A program made the translations under genes and the position numbers. The notes below the pieces were generated by a model. The model was not told where the DNA came from, did no database searches, and saw nothing but the letters and a program-made list of their open reading frames with translations. Shown here piece by piece: positions 1 to 5,647 of a DNA stretch of 5,647 nucleotides. This DNA is from a virus (Duplodnaviria > Heunggongvirae > Uroviricota > Caudoviricetes). The stretch lies in IMG/VR virus record IMGVR_UViG_2540341028_000011, positions 1-5,647 of that record; one strand, 5' to 3'. The number at the start of each line of letters is the position of its first letter. Positions within the stretch are counted from its first letter, which is position 1.

Positions 1-2
1 AT

Positions 3-188
3 CTCTGCTCTCATTGCCGTAAAACATGGCAACTACAGTTCACTTACACCGCCTCTCAGCCCGGTACGCACCAGAAAATCATTGATATGGCCATGAATGG
101 CGTCGGATGTCGCGCCAGTGCACGCATTATGGGCGTTGGCCTCAACACGGTTTTACGTCACTTAAAAAACTCAGGCCGCAGTCGGTAA
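3..188 (+). CDS. insA: IS1 InsA (5'-partial, C-terminal 61 codons, stop TAA 186-188)
   Basis: Frame 3 translates to [61 protein letters not shown], which matches the InsA C-terminus. It is not in the ORF track because the start lies upstream of the window. Confidence 0.85.
162..170 (+). promoter_or_regulatory. IS1 programmed -1 ribosomal frameshift site (A6C slippery run)
   Basis: TTAAAAAAC lies just before the insA stop, at the position where IS1 makes the InsAB' fusion. Confidence 0.7.
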
Positions 189-202
189 CCTCGCGCATAT
201 AA

Positions 203-610
203 CCGGGCAGTGATGTGATTGTCTGCGCTGAAATGGACGAACAGTGGGGCTACGTCGGTGCTAAATCACGTCAGCGCTGGCTGTTTTACGCGTATGACAG
301 GATACGGAGGACGGTTGTGGCGCACGTCTTCGGTGAACGCACTCTGGCCACACTGGAGCGTCTTCTGAGCCTGCTGTCGGCCTTTGAGGTCGTGGTATGG
401 ATGACGGATGGCTGGCCGCTGTATGAATCACGCCTGAAGGGAAAGCTGCACGTTATCAGCAAGCGTTACACTCAGCGCATTGAGCGACATAATCTGAATC
501 TGAGACAACATCTGGCAAGGCTGGGACGGAAGTCACTGTCGTTCTCAAAATCGGTGGAGCTGCATGACAAGGTCATCGGGCATTATCTGAACATAAAACA
601 CTATCAGTAA
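203..610 (+). CDS. insB: IS1 insB reading frame (catalytic part of the InsAB' transposase); cut off from insA by a TAA at 200-202
   Basis: Frame 2 [29 protein letters not shown]...[15 protein letters not shown] (track 215..610) matches IS1 InsB. The frame is normally entered by a -1 frameshift at the A6C site, but here it hits TAA 11 codons after that site. Confidence 0.85.
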
Positions 611-611
611 G

Positions 612-1643
612 TTGGAGTCATTACCCGCCGACTGCCTGGAATTTATCTGGTCGTTACCCGAAAATTCTGTTGACCTGATAGTCACGGACCCGCCGTACTT
701 TAAAGTGAAGCCTGAGGGCTGGGATAACCAGTGGAAGGGCGACGATGATTACCTGAAGTGGCTGGAGCAGTGTCTGGCGCAGTTCTGGCGGGTGCTGAAA
801 CCTGCCGGAAGTCTTTACCTGTTCTGTGGTCATCGCCTGGCATCTGATATCGAAATCATGATGCGTGAACGCTTCAGTGTGCTGAACCATATTATCTGAG
901 CGAAGCCGTCCGGACGCTGGAACGGATGCAACAAGGAAAGCCTGCGGGCGTATTTCCCCGCCACAGAGCGCATTCTGTTCGCGGAACATTATCAGGGGCC
1001 GTACCGCCCGAAAGATGATGGCTATGAGGCGAAGGGCAGTGCACTGAAACAGCATGTGATGGCCCCGCTGATTTCTTACTTTCGTGATGCGCGAGCTGCC
1101 CTGGGGATAACGGCAAAACAGATTGCAGATGCCACAGGAAAGAAAAACATGGTGTCGCACTGGTTCAGTGCCAGTCAGTGGCAGTTGCCGAATGAAAGCG
1201 ATTATCTGAAATTACAGGCGCTGTTTGCCCGGGTGGCAGAAGAGAAGCATCGGCGTGGTGAACTGGAAAAGCTCCACCACCAGCTGGTGGATACGTATAC
1301 CTCACTGAACCGGCAGTATGCGGAGCTGCTGAGTGAATATAAACATCTGCGGCGGTATTTTGGCGTGACGGTGCAGGTGCCGTATACCGATGTGTGGACG
1401 CATAAACCGGTGCAGTTCTATCCCGGGAAACATCCGTGCGAAAAACCGGCAGAAATGCTGCAGCAGATAATCAGCGCTAGCAGTCGTCCGGGTGACCTGA
1501 TTGCAGATTTTTTCATGGGGTCGGGTTCGACAGTGAAAGCGGCACTGGCGCTCGGGCGTCGTGCAATTGGCGTTGAGCTGGAGACTGAACGTTTTGAGCA
1601 GACGGTTCGGGAAGTACAGGATTTAGTCAGCCAGAACGGATGA
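612..1643 (+). pseudogene. Phage-type beta-class DNA (probably N6-adenine) methyltransferase, disrupted: 5' end replaced by the IS1 terminus and an in-frame TGA at 897-899
   Basis: Track ORFs 612..899 and 1056..1643 are in the same frame (frame 3), and the only stop between them is TGA 897-899. Motif IV DLIVTDPPY is near the N-terminus and the AdoMet-binding motif DFFMGSGST near the C-terminus, which is the beta-class order. The first five codons (TTG-GAG-TCA-TTA-CCC) are IS1 terminal sequence, so the native start is lost. Confidence 0.8.
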
Positions 1644-1645
1644 TA

Positions 1646-1674
1646 TTGAAGAATTAATTACGCGTCGTTATTAT
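1646..1674 (+). promoter_or_regulatory. Sigma70-type promoter for the tRNA cluster (-35 TTGAAG 1646-1651, 17 bp spacer, -10 TATTAT 1669-1674, GC-rich discriminator GCGGC)
   Basis: The hexamers and spacing put the predicted start about 1681-1683, just before the first tRNA at 1684. A GC-rich discriminator is typical of stable-RNA promoters. Confidence 0.55.
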
Positions 1675-1683
1675 GCGGCTCCC

Positions 1684-1759
1684 GGCCCTTTAGCTCAGTG
1701 GTGAGAGCGAGCGACTCATAATCGCCAGGTCGCTGGTTCAAATCCAGCAAGGGCCACCA
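1684..1759 (+). tRNA. ileZ: tRNA-Ile2-like, anticodon CAU (lysidine type; elongator Met not strictly excluded), 76 nt with encoded CCA
   Basis: Cloverleaf reads directly: acceptor GGCCCTT/AAGGGCC, anticodon loop CTCATAA, T-loop GGTTCAAATCC, 3' ACCA. It closely resembles E. coli ileX from memory, including C4 and C5 in the acceptor stem. Confidence 0.85.
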
Positions 1760-1766
1760 TCACATA

Positions 1767-1843
1767 CCGCCATTAGCTCATCAGGAAAGAGCGCCAGCCT
1801 TCGAAGCTGGCTGCGCGGGGTTCAAGTCCCCGATGGCGGTCCA
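1767..1843 (+). tRNA. argN: tRNA-Arg, anticodon UCG (decodes CGA, rare in E. coli), 77 nt with encoded CCA
   Basis: Acceptor CCGCCAT/ATGGCGG, anticodon stem CCAGC/GCTGG with loop CTTCGAA, T-arm CGGGG-TTCAAGT-CCCCG, then discriminator plus CCA. Confidence 0.85.
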
Positions 1844-1856
1844 TTATCTGCATCAT

Positions 1857-1933
1857 GCGTTGTTAGCTCAGCCGGACAGAGCAATTGCCTTCTAAGCAAT
1901 CGGTCACTGGTTCGAATCCAGTACAACGCGCCA
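1857..1933 (+). tRNA. argO: tRNA-Arg, anticodon UCU (argU-like, decodes AGA/AGG), 77 nt with encoded CCA
   Basis: Acceptor GCGTTGT/ACAACGC, anticodon stem ATTGC/GCAAT with loop CTTCTAA, T-arm ACTGG-TTCGAAT-CCAGT, 3' GCCA. It resembles E. coli argU from memory. Confidence 0.9.
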
Positions 1934-1948
1934 CACTTATTTTCCCTG

Positions 1949-1973
1949 GCTCGCTTTTGCGGGCTTTTTTTTT
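1949..1973 (+). terminator. Rho-independent terminator closing the tRNA cluster
   Basis: Hairpin GCTCGC-TTTT-GCGGGC (6 bp with one G-U pair) followed directly by a run of nine T. Confidence 0.6.
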
Positions 1974-2170
1974 AAATGTCTCACAATTCAGACGGTTGAC
2001 TGTTGTCTGGTTTGCGGGGAGTTTGTTAAAAGAAACTGGCATGGTGAATCCCCCTGTGCGGAGGGGCAATCAGCGAGTAGGTATATGGGATAATCGCGGA
2101 TTCAGGTGCTGGTACTGAATTCACCGGGAGGCACCCGGCACCATGCAATGGCACATAGCGCCACTCTCCA

Positions 2171-2197
2171 GCCCCTCTCCGGAGGGGCTTTCTTGTG
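2171..2197 (+). terminator. Rho-independent terminator-like hairpin (plus strand)
   Basis: Perfect 7 bp stem GCCCCTC/GAGGGGC with tetraloop TCCG, followed by TTTCTTGTG. Confidence 0.55.
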
Positions 2198-2200
2198 GGC

Positions 2201-2229
2201 AAAAAAAGCCCGCGCTGGGAGACGCGGGC
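2201..2229 (-). terminator. Rho-independent terminator on the minus strand, convergent with the one at 2171-2197
   Basis: The plus strand reads A7-GCCCGCG-CTGGGAGA-CGCGGGC, so the minus strand reads a 7 bp GC stem followed by TTTTTTT. Confidence 0.55.
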
Positions 2230-2422
2230 GGCAAGGAATAAACAATAAAACGTGAAGTAATATTTCAGCTGGCGAATAATACCCCATAGTAGTCACTCTG
2301 CGCAACTGCGCGGTCTTTTTCGAATTGCGGGCTGTCGTCTCTCTTCTGCCATTGTCCTGTAACTTCCGGACTTCAGCCCGCTCCTCATTTTACTCACAAT
2401 ATTATCCCGGCCGGGAGGATTC

Positions 2423-3502
2423 ATGGCTTTTAAACACTATGATGTTGTCAGGGCGGCGTCGCCGTCAGATCTTGCGGAAAAGCTGACACATAAACTGAAA
2501 GAGGGCTGGCAGCCGTTTGGTAGTCCGGTGGCCATAACCCCTTATACTCTGATGCAGGCGATTGCAGCAGAAGGTGCAGTAATCAGCGCCACCAGCGACC
2601 CGGAGTATTACTTTGTTGTGGTTCTGGCAGGGCAGTCAAACGGCATGTCGTATGGTGAAGGCCTTCCGCTGCCGGGGACATATGACCGTCCGGACCCGCG
2701 TATTAAGCAACTGGCGCGTCGCAGTACGGTGACACCGGGCGGTGCAGCATGCAAATATAACGACATCATTCTGGCGGACCATTGTCTGCATGATGTGCAG
2801 GACATGAGCCGTCTTAACCATCCGAAAGCGGACCTGTCAAAGGGGCAGTACGGAACCGTGGGGCAGGGGCTGCATATCGCCAAAAAACTGCTGCCGTTTA
2901 TACCGGCGAATGCGGGCATTCTGCTGGTTCCGTGCTGTCGTGGTGGTTCAGCGTTCACCACCGGAGCTGATGGCACATACAGTGACGCGAGTGGTGCCTC
3001 GGAGAATTCAACCCGCTGGGGTGTGGACAAGCCGCTGTATAAGGACCTTATCGGTCGAACAAAAGCGGCACTGGAGAAGAACCCGAAAAATGTGCTGTTT
3101 GCCGTGGTGTGGATGCAGGGGGAATTTGATTTTGGCGGTACGCCGGCAAATCATGCCGCACAGTTTGGTGCGCTGGTTGATAAATTCCGTGCAGACCTGG
3201 CGGATATGGCAGGCCAGTGCGTCGGTGGCTCTGCTGGCGGTGTTCCCTGGATATGCGGGGACACGACGTATTTCTGGAAGCAGAAGAACGAATCCACGTA
3301 CCAGACGGTGTACGGCAGCTATAAAAATAAAACGGAAAAGAATATCCATTTCGTACCGTTCATGACCGATGAGAACGGGGTGAATGTGCCGACGAACAAA
3401 CCGGAAGAAGACCCGGACATTCGGGGTATCGGTTATTACGGTTCGAAATGGCGTGACAGCTCAGCCACCTGGACGTCACAGGACAGGGCGAGCCATTTCT
3501 AG
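2423..3502 (+). CDS. nanS-p: Prophage NanS-p-like sialate 9-O-acetylesterase (N-terminal DUF1737-like segment plus SGNH/SASA esterase domain), 3'-truncated by IS2
   Basis: 359 aa ORF with GGAGG 6 nt upstream of the ATG. The GQSNGMSYGEGLPLP block and the following sequence resemble E. coli NanS/YjhS and the prophage esterase found downstream of stx, from memory. The stop TAG 3500-3502 is the first three bases of the IS2 left end. Confidence 0.8.
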   Translation: MAFKHYDVVRAASPSDLAEKLTHKLKEGWQPFGSPVAITPYTLMQAIAAEGAVISATSDPEYYFVVVLAGQSNGMSYGEGLPLPGTYDRPDPRIKQLARRSTVTPGGAACKYNDIILADHCLHDVQDMSRLNHPKADLSKGQYGTVGQGLHIAKKLLPFIPANAGILLVPCCRGGSAFTTGADGTYSDASGASENSTRWGVDKPLYKDLIGRTKAALEKNPKNVLFAVVWMQGEFDFGGTPANHAAQFGALVDKFRADLADMAGQCVGGSAGGVPWICGDTTYFWKQKNESTYQTVYGSYKNKTEKNIHFVPFMTDENGVNVPTNKPEEDPDIRGIGYYGSKWRDSSATWTSQDRASHF

Positions 3503-3837
3503 ACTGGCCCCCTGAATCTCCAGACAACCAGTATCACTTAAATAAGTGATAGTCTTAATACTAGTTTTTAGACTAGTCATTGGAGTACAGATGATTGATG
3601 TCTTAGGGCCGGAGAAACGCAGACGGCGTACCACACAGGAAAAGATCGCAATTGTTCAGCAGAGCTTTGAACCGGGGATGACGGTCTCCCTCGTTGCCCG
3701 GCAACATGGTGTAGCAGCCAGCCAGTTATTTCTCTGGCGTAAGCAATACCAGGAAGGAAGTCTTACTGCTGTGGCCGCCGGAGAACAGGTTGTTCCTGCC
3801 TCTGAACTTGCTGCCGCCATGAAGCAGATTAAAGAAC
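3500..3837 (+). mobile_element. IS2 left-end fragment (left terminal repeat TAGACTGGCCCCCTGAATCTCCAGACAACC...), interrupted by IS629
   Basis: The terminal sequence and the start of the InsC reading frame match IS2 from memory. The element breaks off at about 3837, where the IS629 terminal repeat begins. Confidence 0.85.
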
Positions 3838-3839
3838 TG
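3591..3839 (+). pseudogene. insC: IS2 orfA (InsC) N-terminal fragment, about 83 codons, truncated by the IS629 insertion
   Basis: [56 protein letters not shown]...MKQIKEL follows a GGAG ribosome-binding site. After KEL the frame runs into the IS629 repeat, giving NRPGNPGD*. The track start at 3546 is probably an upstream over-extension. Confidence 0.85.
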
Positions 3840-3891
3840 AACCGCCCCGGGAATCCTGGAGACTAAACTCCCTGAGAAAGAGGTAAACAGG

Positions 3892-4218
3892 ATGACTAAA
3901 AATACTCGTTTTTCCCCCGAAGTCCGTCAGAGGGCGATTCGTATGGTTCTGGAAAGTCAGGGCGAATATGACTCACAGTGGGCGGCAATTTGTTCCATTG
4001 CCCCAAAGATTGGCTGTATACCGGAGACTCTGCGTGTCTGGGTACGCCAGCATGAGCGGGATACCGGAGGCGGTGATGGCGGGCTCACCACCGCTGAACG
4101 TCAGCGTCTGAAAGAGCTGGAACGTGAAAATCGTGAACTGCGCCGCAGTAACGATATCCTTCGCCAGGCTTCCGCTTATTTTGCGAAGGCGGAGTTCGAC
4201 CGCCTCTGGAAAAAGTGA
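3892..4218 (+). CDS. IS629 OrfA (IS3-family helix-turn-helix / leucine-zipper transposase subunit)
   Basis: 108 aa [33 protein letters not shown]...[36 protein letters not shown] with AAGAGG ribosome-binding site. An A-rich run GGAAAAAG sits at the orfA end, where IS3-family frameshifting occurs. Confidence 0.9.
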
Positions 4219-4826
4219 TGCCACTGCTGGATAAGCTGCGTAAGCTGTACGGGGTCGGACCGGTATGCAGTGAACTACATATTGCCCCGTCAACGTATTA
4301 CCACTGTCAGCAACAGCGACATCATCCTGATAAACGCAGTGCCCGTGCGCAGCGCGATGACTGGCTGAAGAAAGAGATACTGCGCGTATACGATGGGAAT
4401 CATCAGGTATACGGTGTGCGTAAAGTCTGGCGTCAGTTGTTACGGGAAGGTATCAGAGTGGCCAGATGCACTGTGGCACGTCTCATGGCGGTTATGGGAC
4501 TTGCCGGTGTTCTCCGGGGTAAAAAGGTCCGTACGACCATCAGCCGGAAAGCCGTTGCCGCAGGCGACCGCGTAAACCGTCAGTTCGTGGCAGAACGACC
4601 TGACCAGCTGTGGGTGGCTGATTTTACTTACGTCAGCACATGGCAGGGCTTCGTCTATGTGGCGTTCATTATTGATGTGTTTGCCGGATACATCGTGGGG
4701 TGGCGGGTCTCATCGTCCATGGAAACGACATTCGTGCTGGATGCTCTGGAGCAGGCGTTATGGGCCCGTCGACCGTCCGGCACGGTCCATCACAGTGATA
4801 AAGGTTCTCAGTATGTATCGCTGGCC
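4215..4826 (+). pseudogene. IS629 OrfB (DDE transposase catalytic domain), 3'-truncated with the third catalytic residue region missing
   Basis: Frame -1 relative to orfA. Contains WVADFTYV and HHSDKGSQY, the first two acidic-residue motifs of an IS3-family DD(35)E domain. The ORF then reads 4 codons into the next element (VSVN*), so the E-containing region is absent. Confidence 0.85.
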
Positions 4827-4912
4827 GTAAGCGTAAACTGACCGCCGTATGTAGCCATTAAGCCTGTATTGGTAACGTAGGTGCCCACCTTTTCAACTAG
4901 TGGACACCTGTT

Positions 4913-5332
4913 ATGGAACAGAAAGCATTATCTGCAGAACCCCGCAGATCATTTTCAAATGAGTTTAAACTTCAAATGGTTAAACTGGCTTCACAACCAG
5001 GAGCCTCTGTTGCCCGTATTGCCCGGGAACACGATATCAATGATAACCTGCTGTTCAAATGGCTCAGGCTCTGGCAGAACGAAGGGCGCATATCGCGGCG
5101 TCTTCCGGTAACAACCTCTTCTGACACTGGCGTTGAATTATTACCTGTGGAGATAACGCCGGATGAGCCGAAAGAACCTGTGGCTGCTCTTACTTCGTCT
5201 TTATCTACTCAGACTACTGTTAGTGCCAGCTCCTGCAAGGTGGAGTTCCGTCACGGTAACATGACGCTGGAAAATCCTTCACCAGAGCTGCTCACAGTGT
5301 TGATCCGTGAACTGACCGGGAGGGGACGATGA
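4913..5332 (+). CDS. tnpA: IS66-family accessory protein TnpA (helix-turn-helix)
   Basis: 139 aa ORF MEQKALSAEPRRSFSNEFKLQMVKLASQPGASVARIAREHDINDNLLFKWLRLWQNEG..., with the stop overlapping the next start. Confidence 0.8.
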   Translation: MEQKALSAEPRRSFSNEFKLQMVKLASQPGASVARIAREHDINDNLLFKWLRLWQNEGRISRRLPVTTSSDTGVELLPVEITPDEPKEPVAALTSSLSTQTTVSASSCKVEFRHGNMTLENPSPELLTVLIRELTGRGR

Positions 5333-5647
5333 TCTCACTCCCGTCAGGCACCCGCATCTGGCTCGTTGCTGGGATAACCGATATGCGTAAGTCTTTCAAC
5401 GGGCTGGGTGAACAGGTACAGCATGTGCTGAATGATAATCCCTTCTCCGGTCACCTGTTCATCTTCCGTGGCCGACGGGGTGACATGATTAAAATCCTGT
5501 GGGCTGATGCTGATGGTCTGTGCCTGTTCACCAGACGCCTGGAGGAAGGCCAGTTTATCTGGCCTGCTGTGCGTGACGGCAAGGTATCCATTACCCGCTC
5601 GCAACTGGCAATGCTCCTCGATAAGCTGGACTGGCGTCAGCCAAAAA
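5329..5647 (+). CDS. tnpB: IS66-family TnpB (Orf2), 5' part; open to the window edge, so absent from the ORF track
   Basis: Frame 1 from ATG 5329 translates without a stop to MISLPSGTRIWLVAGITDMRKSFNGLGEQVQHVLNDNPFSGHLFIFRGRRGDMIKILWADADGLCLFTRRLEEGQFIWPAVRDGKVSITRSQLAMLLDKLDWRQPK, recognisable as IS66 TnpB. Confidence 0.85.
   Translation, partial: MISLPSGTRIWLVAGITDMRKSFNGLGEQVQHVLNDNPFSGHLFIFRGRRGDMIKILWADADGLCLFTRRLEEGQFIWPAVRDGKVSITRSQLAMLLDKLDWRQPK

Follow-up and report, generated by a model that had tools for sequence, protein, structure and literature searches.

A probable pseudogene of the M.EcoGI/M.EcoGII family of prophage DNA methylases in Shigella, bounded by IS1 and interrupted by a stop at Trp105

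M.EcoGII, a 349-aa beta-class enzyme encoded by a prophage of Escherichia coli O104:H4 C227-11, methylates adenine irrespective of sequence context (Murray et al. 2018, PMC5778455). It is identical at 333 of 349 positions to M.EcoGI, which is encoded by another prophage of the same strain; it is silent in the lysogen, and its constitutive expression harms the cell (PMC5778455). Phage 1720a-02 was said by the same authors to carry a very similar methyltransferase (Murray et al., PMC5778455). In an AlphaFold2 model of M.EcoGII, the Rossmann catalytic core comprises residues 1-134 and 260-349, a helix-turn-helix four-helix TRD occupies residues 160-237, and the dimer interface is formed by residues 97-110 and 116-140, the first of these segments being fully conserved in M.EcoGII and its reconstructed ancestors (PMC11551740).

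Here we describe a remnant of a related gene in a stretch of 5,647 nucleotides (the window), which is the 5.6-kb contig AERO01000124.1 of the draft assembly GCA_000193935.2 (locus L008). AERO00000000 is Shigella flexneri CDC 796-83 (PMC5429569). The gene order along the window is the right 625 bp of IS1, the methylase remnant, three tRNA genes, a match to the STnc100 family, a DUF1737/SASA esterase gene and a nest of IS elements. The features to which the text refers are as follows.

1-625, plus strand: IS1, positions 144-768 of the 768-bp element (Pfam DDE_Tnp_IS1, Zn_ribbon_InsA and HTH_Tnp_IS1 on the called genes)
162-170, plus strand: insAB' A6C frameshift motif of IS1
215-610, plus strand: insB-frame ORF of IS1
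603-625, plus strand: right inverted repeat of IS1
612-899, plus strand: hybrid ORF of 95 codons with a TTG start and a TGA end (ORF listing, translation, Pfam)
626-1643, plus strand: remnant of an M.EcoGI/GII-family beta-class N6-adenine DNA methyltransferase gene, starting at the third base of codon 14 and ending with the stop at 1641-1643 (gap-free alignment to intact 1059-nt genes)
687-698, plus strand: catalytic motif IV, DPPY, residues 35-38
897-899, plus strand: nonsense codon TGA in place of TGG (Trp105), G to A at 899
1056-1643, plus strand: 3' ORF of 195 aa, in which GTG is codon 158 and ATG is codon 159
1062-1295, plus strand: TRD, residues 160-237 (limits from the AlphaFold2 model of M.EcoGII, PMC11551740)
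1431-1448, plus strand: HPCEKP motif
1512-1526, plus strand: AdoMet motif I, FMGSG, residues 310-314
1684-1933, plus strand: prophage tRNA cluster, with a CAT/ileZ-type tRNA, Arg-TCG and Arg-TCT (ARAGORN; Rfam tRNA 58-72 bits)

When the frame was translated from 612, the conceptual product read LESLP-ADCLEFIWSLPENSVDLIVTDPPYF...VLNHII*AKPSGRWNG...ADFFMGSGSTVKAA...LVSQNG*, so that LESLP-ADCLEF, DPPY, NHII*AKPSG, FMGSGST and SQNG* follow one another with 897-899 as the sole internal stop. The initial annotation, made from the letters alone, had described a DPPY...FxGxG frame that is open from the IS1 boundary to 1643 save for this TGA, and both the translation and the gap-free alignment to homologues confirmed it. 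The beta-class order of motifs, with DPPY in the N-terminal part and FxGxG in the C-terminal part, is retained, and a complete ORF of 349-352 codons is not: 41 nt are gone from the 5' end, and codon 105 is TGA. The Pfam profile PF01555 (N6_N4_Mtase), which covers residues 29-340 of an intact homologue with 150 bits, was split between the two ORFs of the window: the ORF at 612-899 matched profile positions 1-79 (E 9e-14), and the ORF at 1056-1643 matched positions 121-219 (E 2.5e-24). Compared with the copy in an E. coli O121 prophage, 626-1643 contained no other stop and no indel, and 36 further substitutions remained.

The ORF at 612-899 begins, as had been noticed, with a TTG inside IS1. This TTG and four further codons come from the IS1 end (L-E-S-L-P), the fifth codon (CCC, P) straddling the IS1/methylase joint, and methylase residues 15-104 follow, the native residues starting at Ala15. 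The insB stop (608-610) lies one base from the TTG at 612, and the remnant is co-oriented with insB. No obvious Shine-Dalgarno-like run was found just upstream of the TTG at 612 (ACATAAAACACTATCAGTAAG) or upstream of the 3' ORF at 1056. Over 400-2450 a promoter scan found 3 sites where 1.6 were expected, and none of the 3 reads outward at the IS1 end. Residues 105-157 (53 residues) fall outside both ORFs. Since DPPY lies at residues 35-38 and FMGSG at residues 310-314, the 3' ORF, which starts at residue 158, retains the TRD, HPCEKP and FxGxG but has no DPPY and cannot be catalytic alone, in agreement with the initial annotation. On the map of the M.EcoGII model, the 95-aa hybrid product ends inside the first segment of the dimer interface.

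A megablast search matched the window to 277 phage records, the best of which were Stx2a/Stx2d-converting phages with ~94% identity, and in these the match was one gap-free piece that started from 626 under a CDS annotated as "DNA methylase" and was followed by tRNA. Among complete E. coli genomes, the best gap-free matches were 95.5-96.6% identical and again started from 626. Overall, the DNA identity of the remnant to intact Stx/lambdoid prophage genes was 94-97%, and the gap-free homology started exactly at window 626 and ran to the stop at 1643 (94.3% for phage Stx2_95 and 96.6% for the E. coli O121 prophage). The intact homologues are either 1059 nt (352 aa), as in Stx2_95 and the O121 prophage, or 1050 nt (349 aa), and their start lies 41 nt upstream of the position equivalent to window 626. 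In Stx2_95 and O121 the gene starts with ATG-(T/C)TT-AAT-ACT-GTA-AAA-ATA-TCC-AGT-TGT-GAG-TTA-ATC-AAC. Thus, the alignment to intact prophage homologues gave the measure of the N-terminal loss: the first 41 nt, which are 13 codons and 2 nt of codon 14, are missing from the window gene. No homologue starting at the residue equivalent to 626 was present among those examined. Residues 8-14 (SSCELIN) can be aligned to solved beta-class enzymes, so the lost stretch matches the start of their conserved N-terminal region. At its other end the window copy is of the 352-aa variant (...DLVSQNG), as in the O121 prophage.

The remnant was then compared with the described members of the family. The conceptual product of the window was identical to published M.EcoGII at 310 of 335 aa, without a gap in the TRD, which is approximately 93% because the M.EcoGII sequence was machine-read, with reading errors, from the PDF supplement of the SUPREM paper. 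Against the 349-aa enzyme of an O104:H4 prophage, 323 of 335 positions were identical (96%), and that enzyme in turn agreed with the printed M.EcoGII at 330 of 348 positions, which suggests that the 349-aa enzyme of this syntenic prophage is the orthologue of M.EcoGI. The "DNA methyl transferase" gene of phage 1720a-02 was 94.1% identical to the window at the DNA level. The location is that of a lambdoid prophage, with synteny to the O104:H4, O121 and Stx2 prophages in the order Q, 198-nt ORF, methyltransferase, three tRNAs, SASA esterase and lysis genes, and the order in the tRNA cluster 3' of the methylase matches that of intact prophages. Judged by sequence and synteny, the remnant is a member of the M.EcoGI/M.EcoGII family by descent only, as a pseudogene. 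The intact gene, between Q and tRNAs of the ileZ-argN-argO type, lies in late-operon territory and is presumably transcribed only after induction.

The left boundary of the remnant was examined in relatives, since the left end of IS1 lies outside the window. The first base of the window is IS1 position 144, the IS1 terminus (...GTTGGAGTCATTACC) ends at 625, and window 1-625 is 100% identical to IS1 positions 144-768, with the A6C motif (TTAAAAAAC) at IS1 position 305 (window 162). Near-identical DNA is labelled in RefSeq as "IS1-like element IS1X2 family transposase", and the 232-aa IS1 product has the Pfam domains Zn_ribbon_InsA, HTH_Tnp_IS1 and DDE_Tnp_IS1. IS1 is typically ~768 bp long with imperfect terminal inverted repeats of roughly 23 bp (GGTAATG...), and its simple insertion produces a target-site duplication of 8-9 bp. 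The complete copies in complete chromosomes are 768 bp long, with inverted repeats matching at 20 of 23 positions and the A6C frameshift motif; the copy in S. flexneri 64-5500 (CP026811) lies at L005 7436-8203. The left flank (...TCCACTCGTCGAGCG) was the same in all assemblies that extend to the left end of IS1. In S. flexneri 64-5500, this flank consists of a phage integrase gene and the remains of xis, directly adjoining IS1.

In E. coli O104:H4 2009EL-2071 a complete prophage occupies the corresponding site beside potC, and its integrase and excisionase are the same as in S. flexneri 64-5500 (98.9% identity). Pairwise BLAST of this prophage (L013) with the S. flexneri 64-5500 locus (L005) showed that L005 5000-7435 corresponds to L013 18901-21347 with 98.6% identity and that L005 8204-10707 corresponds to L013 37519-40026 with 90.2% identity. 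The matched flanks show that L013 21348-37518 (16,171 bp) is replaced by one 768-bp IS1. The O104:H4 segment comprises the first 22 nt of xis, exo, dicB, relBE, repressor/cro-like and replication genes, hokD, DUF968, rusA, the antiterminator gene (Q), the 198-nt ORF and the first 41 nt of the methylase gene. Relative to O104:H4 the Shigella prophage remnant is mosaic, with 98.6% identity on the int/xis side and 90.2% on the methylase-tRNA-esterase side.

No target-site duplication was found at this IS1: the flanking 9-mers CGTCGAGCG and CGCCGACTG agree at 6 positions. They lie at L005 7427-7435 and 8204-8212, the right one being window 626-634. We considered the flanks as a degenerate target duplication and rejected this, for they are 16 kb apart in the intact prophage; the 6/9 likeness probably reflects chance or the target preference of IS1. 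The lack of a duplication is expected if IS1 bounds a deletion or is the recombinant of two copies. Judged by synteny, this IS1 marks a deletion of ~16.2 kb and not an insertion, and either an adjacent deletion by one IS1 or recombination between two IS1 copies in direct repeat could have produced the joint. The view that the IS1 terminus had replaced the native start codon and ribosome-binding site was thus right about their loss, the intact start lying 41 nt upstream of 626, and has to be given up as a mere replacement by the terminus in light of the 16.2-kb deletion. By analogy with phage lambda, the late promoter of lambdoid phages would lie downstream of Q, and the lost intergenic region between Q and the methyltransferase gene is the likely place of this promoter.

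The second lesion is at codon 105. At position 899 the window has A, and every intact homologue examined (Stx2_95, the O121 prophage, a gut-metagenome contig and the O104:H4 prophage) has G. A 41-mer centred on the site with TGG occurred in 1,498 of 5,426 complete E. coli genomes, at 1,855 places, and the same 41-mer with TGA occurred in none of the 5,426 genomes and in none of 50,697 phage records. A 29-mer with TGA gave no hit in GTDB species representatives and JGI metagenome contigs. In the alignment, Trp105 corresponds to the W of "NEIIWDR" in PDB 9c3u/8urk and of "NLIIWNYP" in M.RsrI, within the IIW block, and lies within residues 97-110. The proposal that TGG had become TGA at a likely conserved Trp was thereby borne out, and none of the intact homologues examined has a natural stop at codon 105. 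The lesion is a TGG-to-TGA nonsense mutation, a G-to-A transition at a conserved Trp.

Both lesions are shared by a group of strains. The remnant sequence was identical in 16 other assemblies, and the double lesion occurs in two serotype 6 strains of S. flexneri, 64-5500 and FDAARGOS_714 (serotyped in PMC9455713), in S. boydii serotype 4 Sb227 (CP000036; identity from PMC8767353) and in several other assemblies, whereas the 5,426 complete E. coli genomes lack it. Serotype 6 groups more closely with S. boydii than with the rest of S. flexneri (PMC8767353), and the two lesions accordingly look like shared derived characters of the S. flexneri serotype 6/S. boydii Sb227 lineage. The conclusion that the prophage has lost this methylase accordingly extends from one strain to that lineage. 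Many contigs encode the 95-aa hybrid ORF and a truncated esterase of 359 aa. Neither among these contigs nor in scans of complete E. coli genomes, phages, GTDB representatives and JGI metagenomes did we find a genome that has one lesion and lacks the other.

One contig from a Nepal gut metagenome (L007) was considered as an intermediate, for its methylase gene is intact at the 5' end with TGG as codon 105, and it encodes a truncated esterase of 359 aa identical to that of the window. It was rejected, since its methylase differs from the window by ~3%, with the differences graded towards 3', and the contig may be a recombinant or a chimera. At L007 ~9086-9093 (window 1508-1513) an extra T in a T6 run before FMGSG shifts the frame of the AdoMet motif and gives a 330-aa product, which may represent either another inactivation that arose independently or a misassembly of the homopolymer. 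In another assembly (GCA_000296305.1, L022 3811-4288) the same IS1 joint and TGA occur together with an esterase call of 462 aa instead of 359 aa. Since both methylase lesions are present there beside a longer esterase, the truncation of the esterase may be younger than they are.

Several further observations concern the DNA 3' of the methylase. The tRNA-Arg(TCG) gene (window 1767-1843, plus strand; 58 bits as tRNA) shows several differences from its copies in four E. coli prophages/phages, and the neighbouring tRNA(CAT) and tRNA-Arg(TCT) genes are identical to the copies in the same four. A full-length Rfam match to the STnc100 sRNA family (RF02076; 139 bits against a gathering score of 47) lies at window 2010-2200 on the plus strand, between the tRNA cluster and the esterase gene, which is the place of stx in Stx phages. 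The DUF1737/SASA (nanS-p-like) esterase gene (window 2423-3502) is interrupted at ~3499/3500 by an element that we take to be the left end of IS2 (window 3500-3838), and this is cut near 3838 by an element that is presumably IS629-like (window 3839-4826). The latter is itself cut at 4826/4827, exactly at the GTAAGCG... terminus of an IS66-family element (window 4827-5647). S. flexneri 64-5500, which is 100% identical to window 1-4826, lacks this last junction, and the junction looks strain-specific.

The explanation that we consider very probably correct is that window 626-1643 is a pseudogene of an M.EcoGI/M.EcoGII-family prophage methylase, disabled by an IS1-bounded deletion and by nonsense mutation of Trp105 in the course of plain decay. 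An IS1-associated deletion extended from within xis through the second base of methylase codon 14 (~16.2 kb in the O104:H4 prophage) and cost the gene its first 14 residues, its start codon and ribosome-binding site, the upstream intergenic region and Q. An independent G-to-A transition turned the TGG of Trp105 into TGA. At most two fragments would then be left, one of 95 aa that is fused to IS1 and holds DPPY and one of 195 aa that holds the TRD and FxGxG, and the stretch from residue 105 to 157, to which the model assigns a portion of the Rossmann core and the greater part of the dimer interface (PMC11551740), is in neither of them. We found nothing in the data that contradicts this account. 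Context-free adenine methylation is a property of the family, and for the window copy the two lesions together predict zero activity; no active enzyme would be expected from the remnant, in respect of expression as well as of activity.

Two other readings would make one of the lesions only apparent. A simple insertion of IS1, with the 5' 41 nt and the promoter lying just beyond the element and the gene restorable by precise excision, is compatible with the window alone, which starts at IS1 position 144, but it is barely credible given what lies to the left of IS1 in complete chromosomes and long contigs, namely xis/int of the prophage and not methylase, together with the lack of a 9-bp target duplication and the disappearance of 16.2 kb of syntenic prophage. 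That the TGA is a sequencing or assembly error, leaving the IS1 lesion alone as real, might be suspected of a 5.6-kb contig from a draft assembly; there is practically no chance of this, since A at 899 recurs with zero differences in the remnant in the 16 other assemblies, several of which are finished chromosomes from different laboratories and dates, including that of S. boydii Sb227, and hence is not a read error.

The remaining readings accept both lesions and differ on what they mean. Because the remnant lies directly downstream of insB in the same orientation, read-out transcription from IS1 into it is possible. Among the stop codons of E. coli, UGA is the one most prone to read-through, and its near-cognate decoding by tRNA-Trp would restore the native residue. 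Residual function through such read-out and read-through, or a split methylase made from the two fragments, would also suit the single base between the insB stop and the TTG at 612 and the lack of further damage to the frame after the TGA. We nevertheless regard residual function as highly improbable: the first 14 residues are gone, of which 8-14 align to solved homologues, neither 612 nor 1056 is preceded by an obvious Shine-Dalgarno-like run, core and dimer-interface residues of the model (PMC11551740) lie in the stretch outside both ORFs, and the intactness of the 3' part needs no selection, since all copies are identical and apparently recent. A further possibility is that the nonsense mutation was selected after the deletion had fused a toxic, non-specific methylase to constitutive IS1 transcription without control by repressor or Q. 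Speaking for it are the harm done by constitutive M.EcoGII and its silence in the lysogen (Murray et al., PMC5778455), the position of the gene immediately 3' of insB and the independent frameshift in the FxGxG region of the related metagenomic contig (L007). It is unlikely, as no single-lesion genome was found to set the order of the two, the N-terminal truncation may already inactivate the protein, the frameshift of L007 sits in a homopolymer run that may have been misassembled, and pseudogenes build up neutrally in Shigella genomes (PMC3218036). That the stop served as an adaptive "safety catch" against a toxic methylase one base 3' of insB and was later fixed in the S. boydii/S. flexneri serotype 6 lineage, or, in a weaker form, that trace read-through of UGA leaves a low, diffuse m6A, is in our estimate quite improbable. 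We therefore keep to plain decay as the preferred reading.

The main practical consequence of plain decay is for annotation. The two short "N6_N4_Mtase" ORFs called in S. flexneri serotype 6 and S. boydii Sb227 would be fragments of one dead gene, not to be counted in restriction-modification or methylome inventories. Checking methylome data for loss of the corresponding motif, which had been suggested as a test, would be uninformative, since the family is non-specific, motif-less and silent in lysogens. The IS1 joint and the TGA provide a clean pair of derived characters joining S. flexneri serotype 6 with S. boydii Sb227, in agreement with the phylogeny (PMC8767353), and the locus is an example of one IS1 removing the whole early region of a prophage and locking the remnant and three tRNA genes in the chromosome. 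Beyond correct annotation, the significance is slight.

[quoted passage not shown] With the O104:H4 prophage it has in common the integrase, the position adjacent to potC and the order Q-methyltransferase-tRNA-esterase. The "DNA methylase" genes of Stx2_95, 1720a-02, phiP27 and mEp460 are 80-94% identical to it at the DNA level over the whole remnant, and Stx2/lambdoid phage methylase genes have the same neighbours, Q upstream and the tRNA cluster downstream; in contrast to the remnant they are complete (1059 nt, TGG at codon 105) and belong to inducible phages, whereas the Shigella remnant has no stx and its early region is gone. Among solved beta-class methyltransferases, PDB 9c3u/8urk, M.RsrI (1eg2/1nw5) and CcrM (6pbd) have in common an N-terminal core with DPPY and IIW and a C-terminal HPxxKP/FxGSG; the core alone aligns (E 1e-25 to 1e-17), and the central TRD of the M.EcoGII family has no sequence match in the chains of 9c3u/8urk, M.RsrI and CcrM. 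The locus resembles the IS-driven pseudogenisation of Shigella (PMC3218036; PMC8767353) in having a complete IS1 at the joint without a target duplication and in its IS-dense setting, with IS1, IS2, IS629 and IS66-family elements within 5.6 kb, and among the IS1 adjacent deletions of Shigella nothing about it is unusual. All its parts are known, namely an M.EcoGII-family prophage methylase, an IS1-mediated deletion and the reductive evolution of Shigella, and together they amount to ordinary genome decay.
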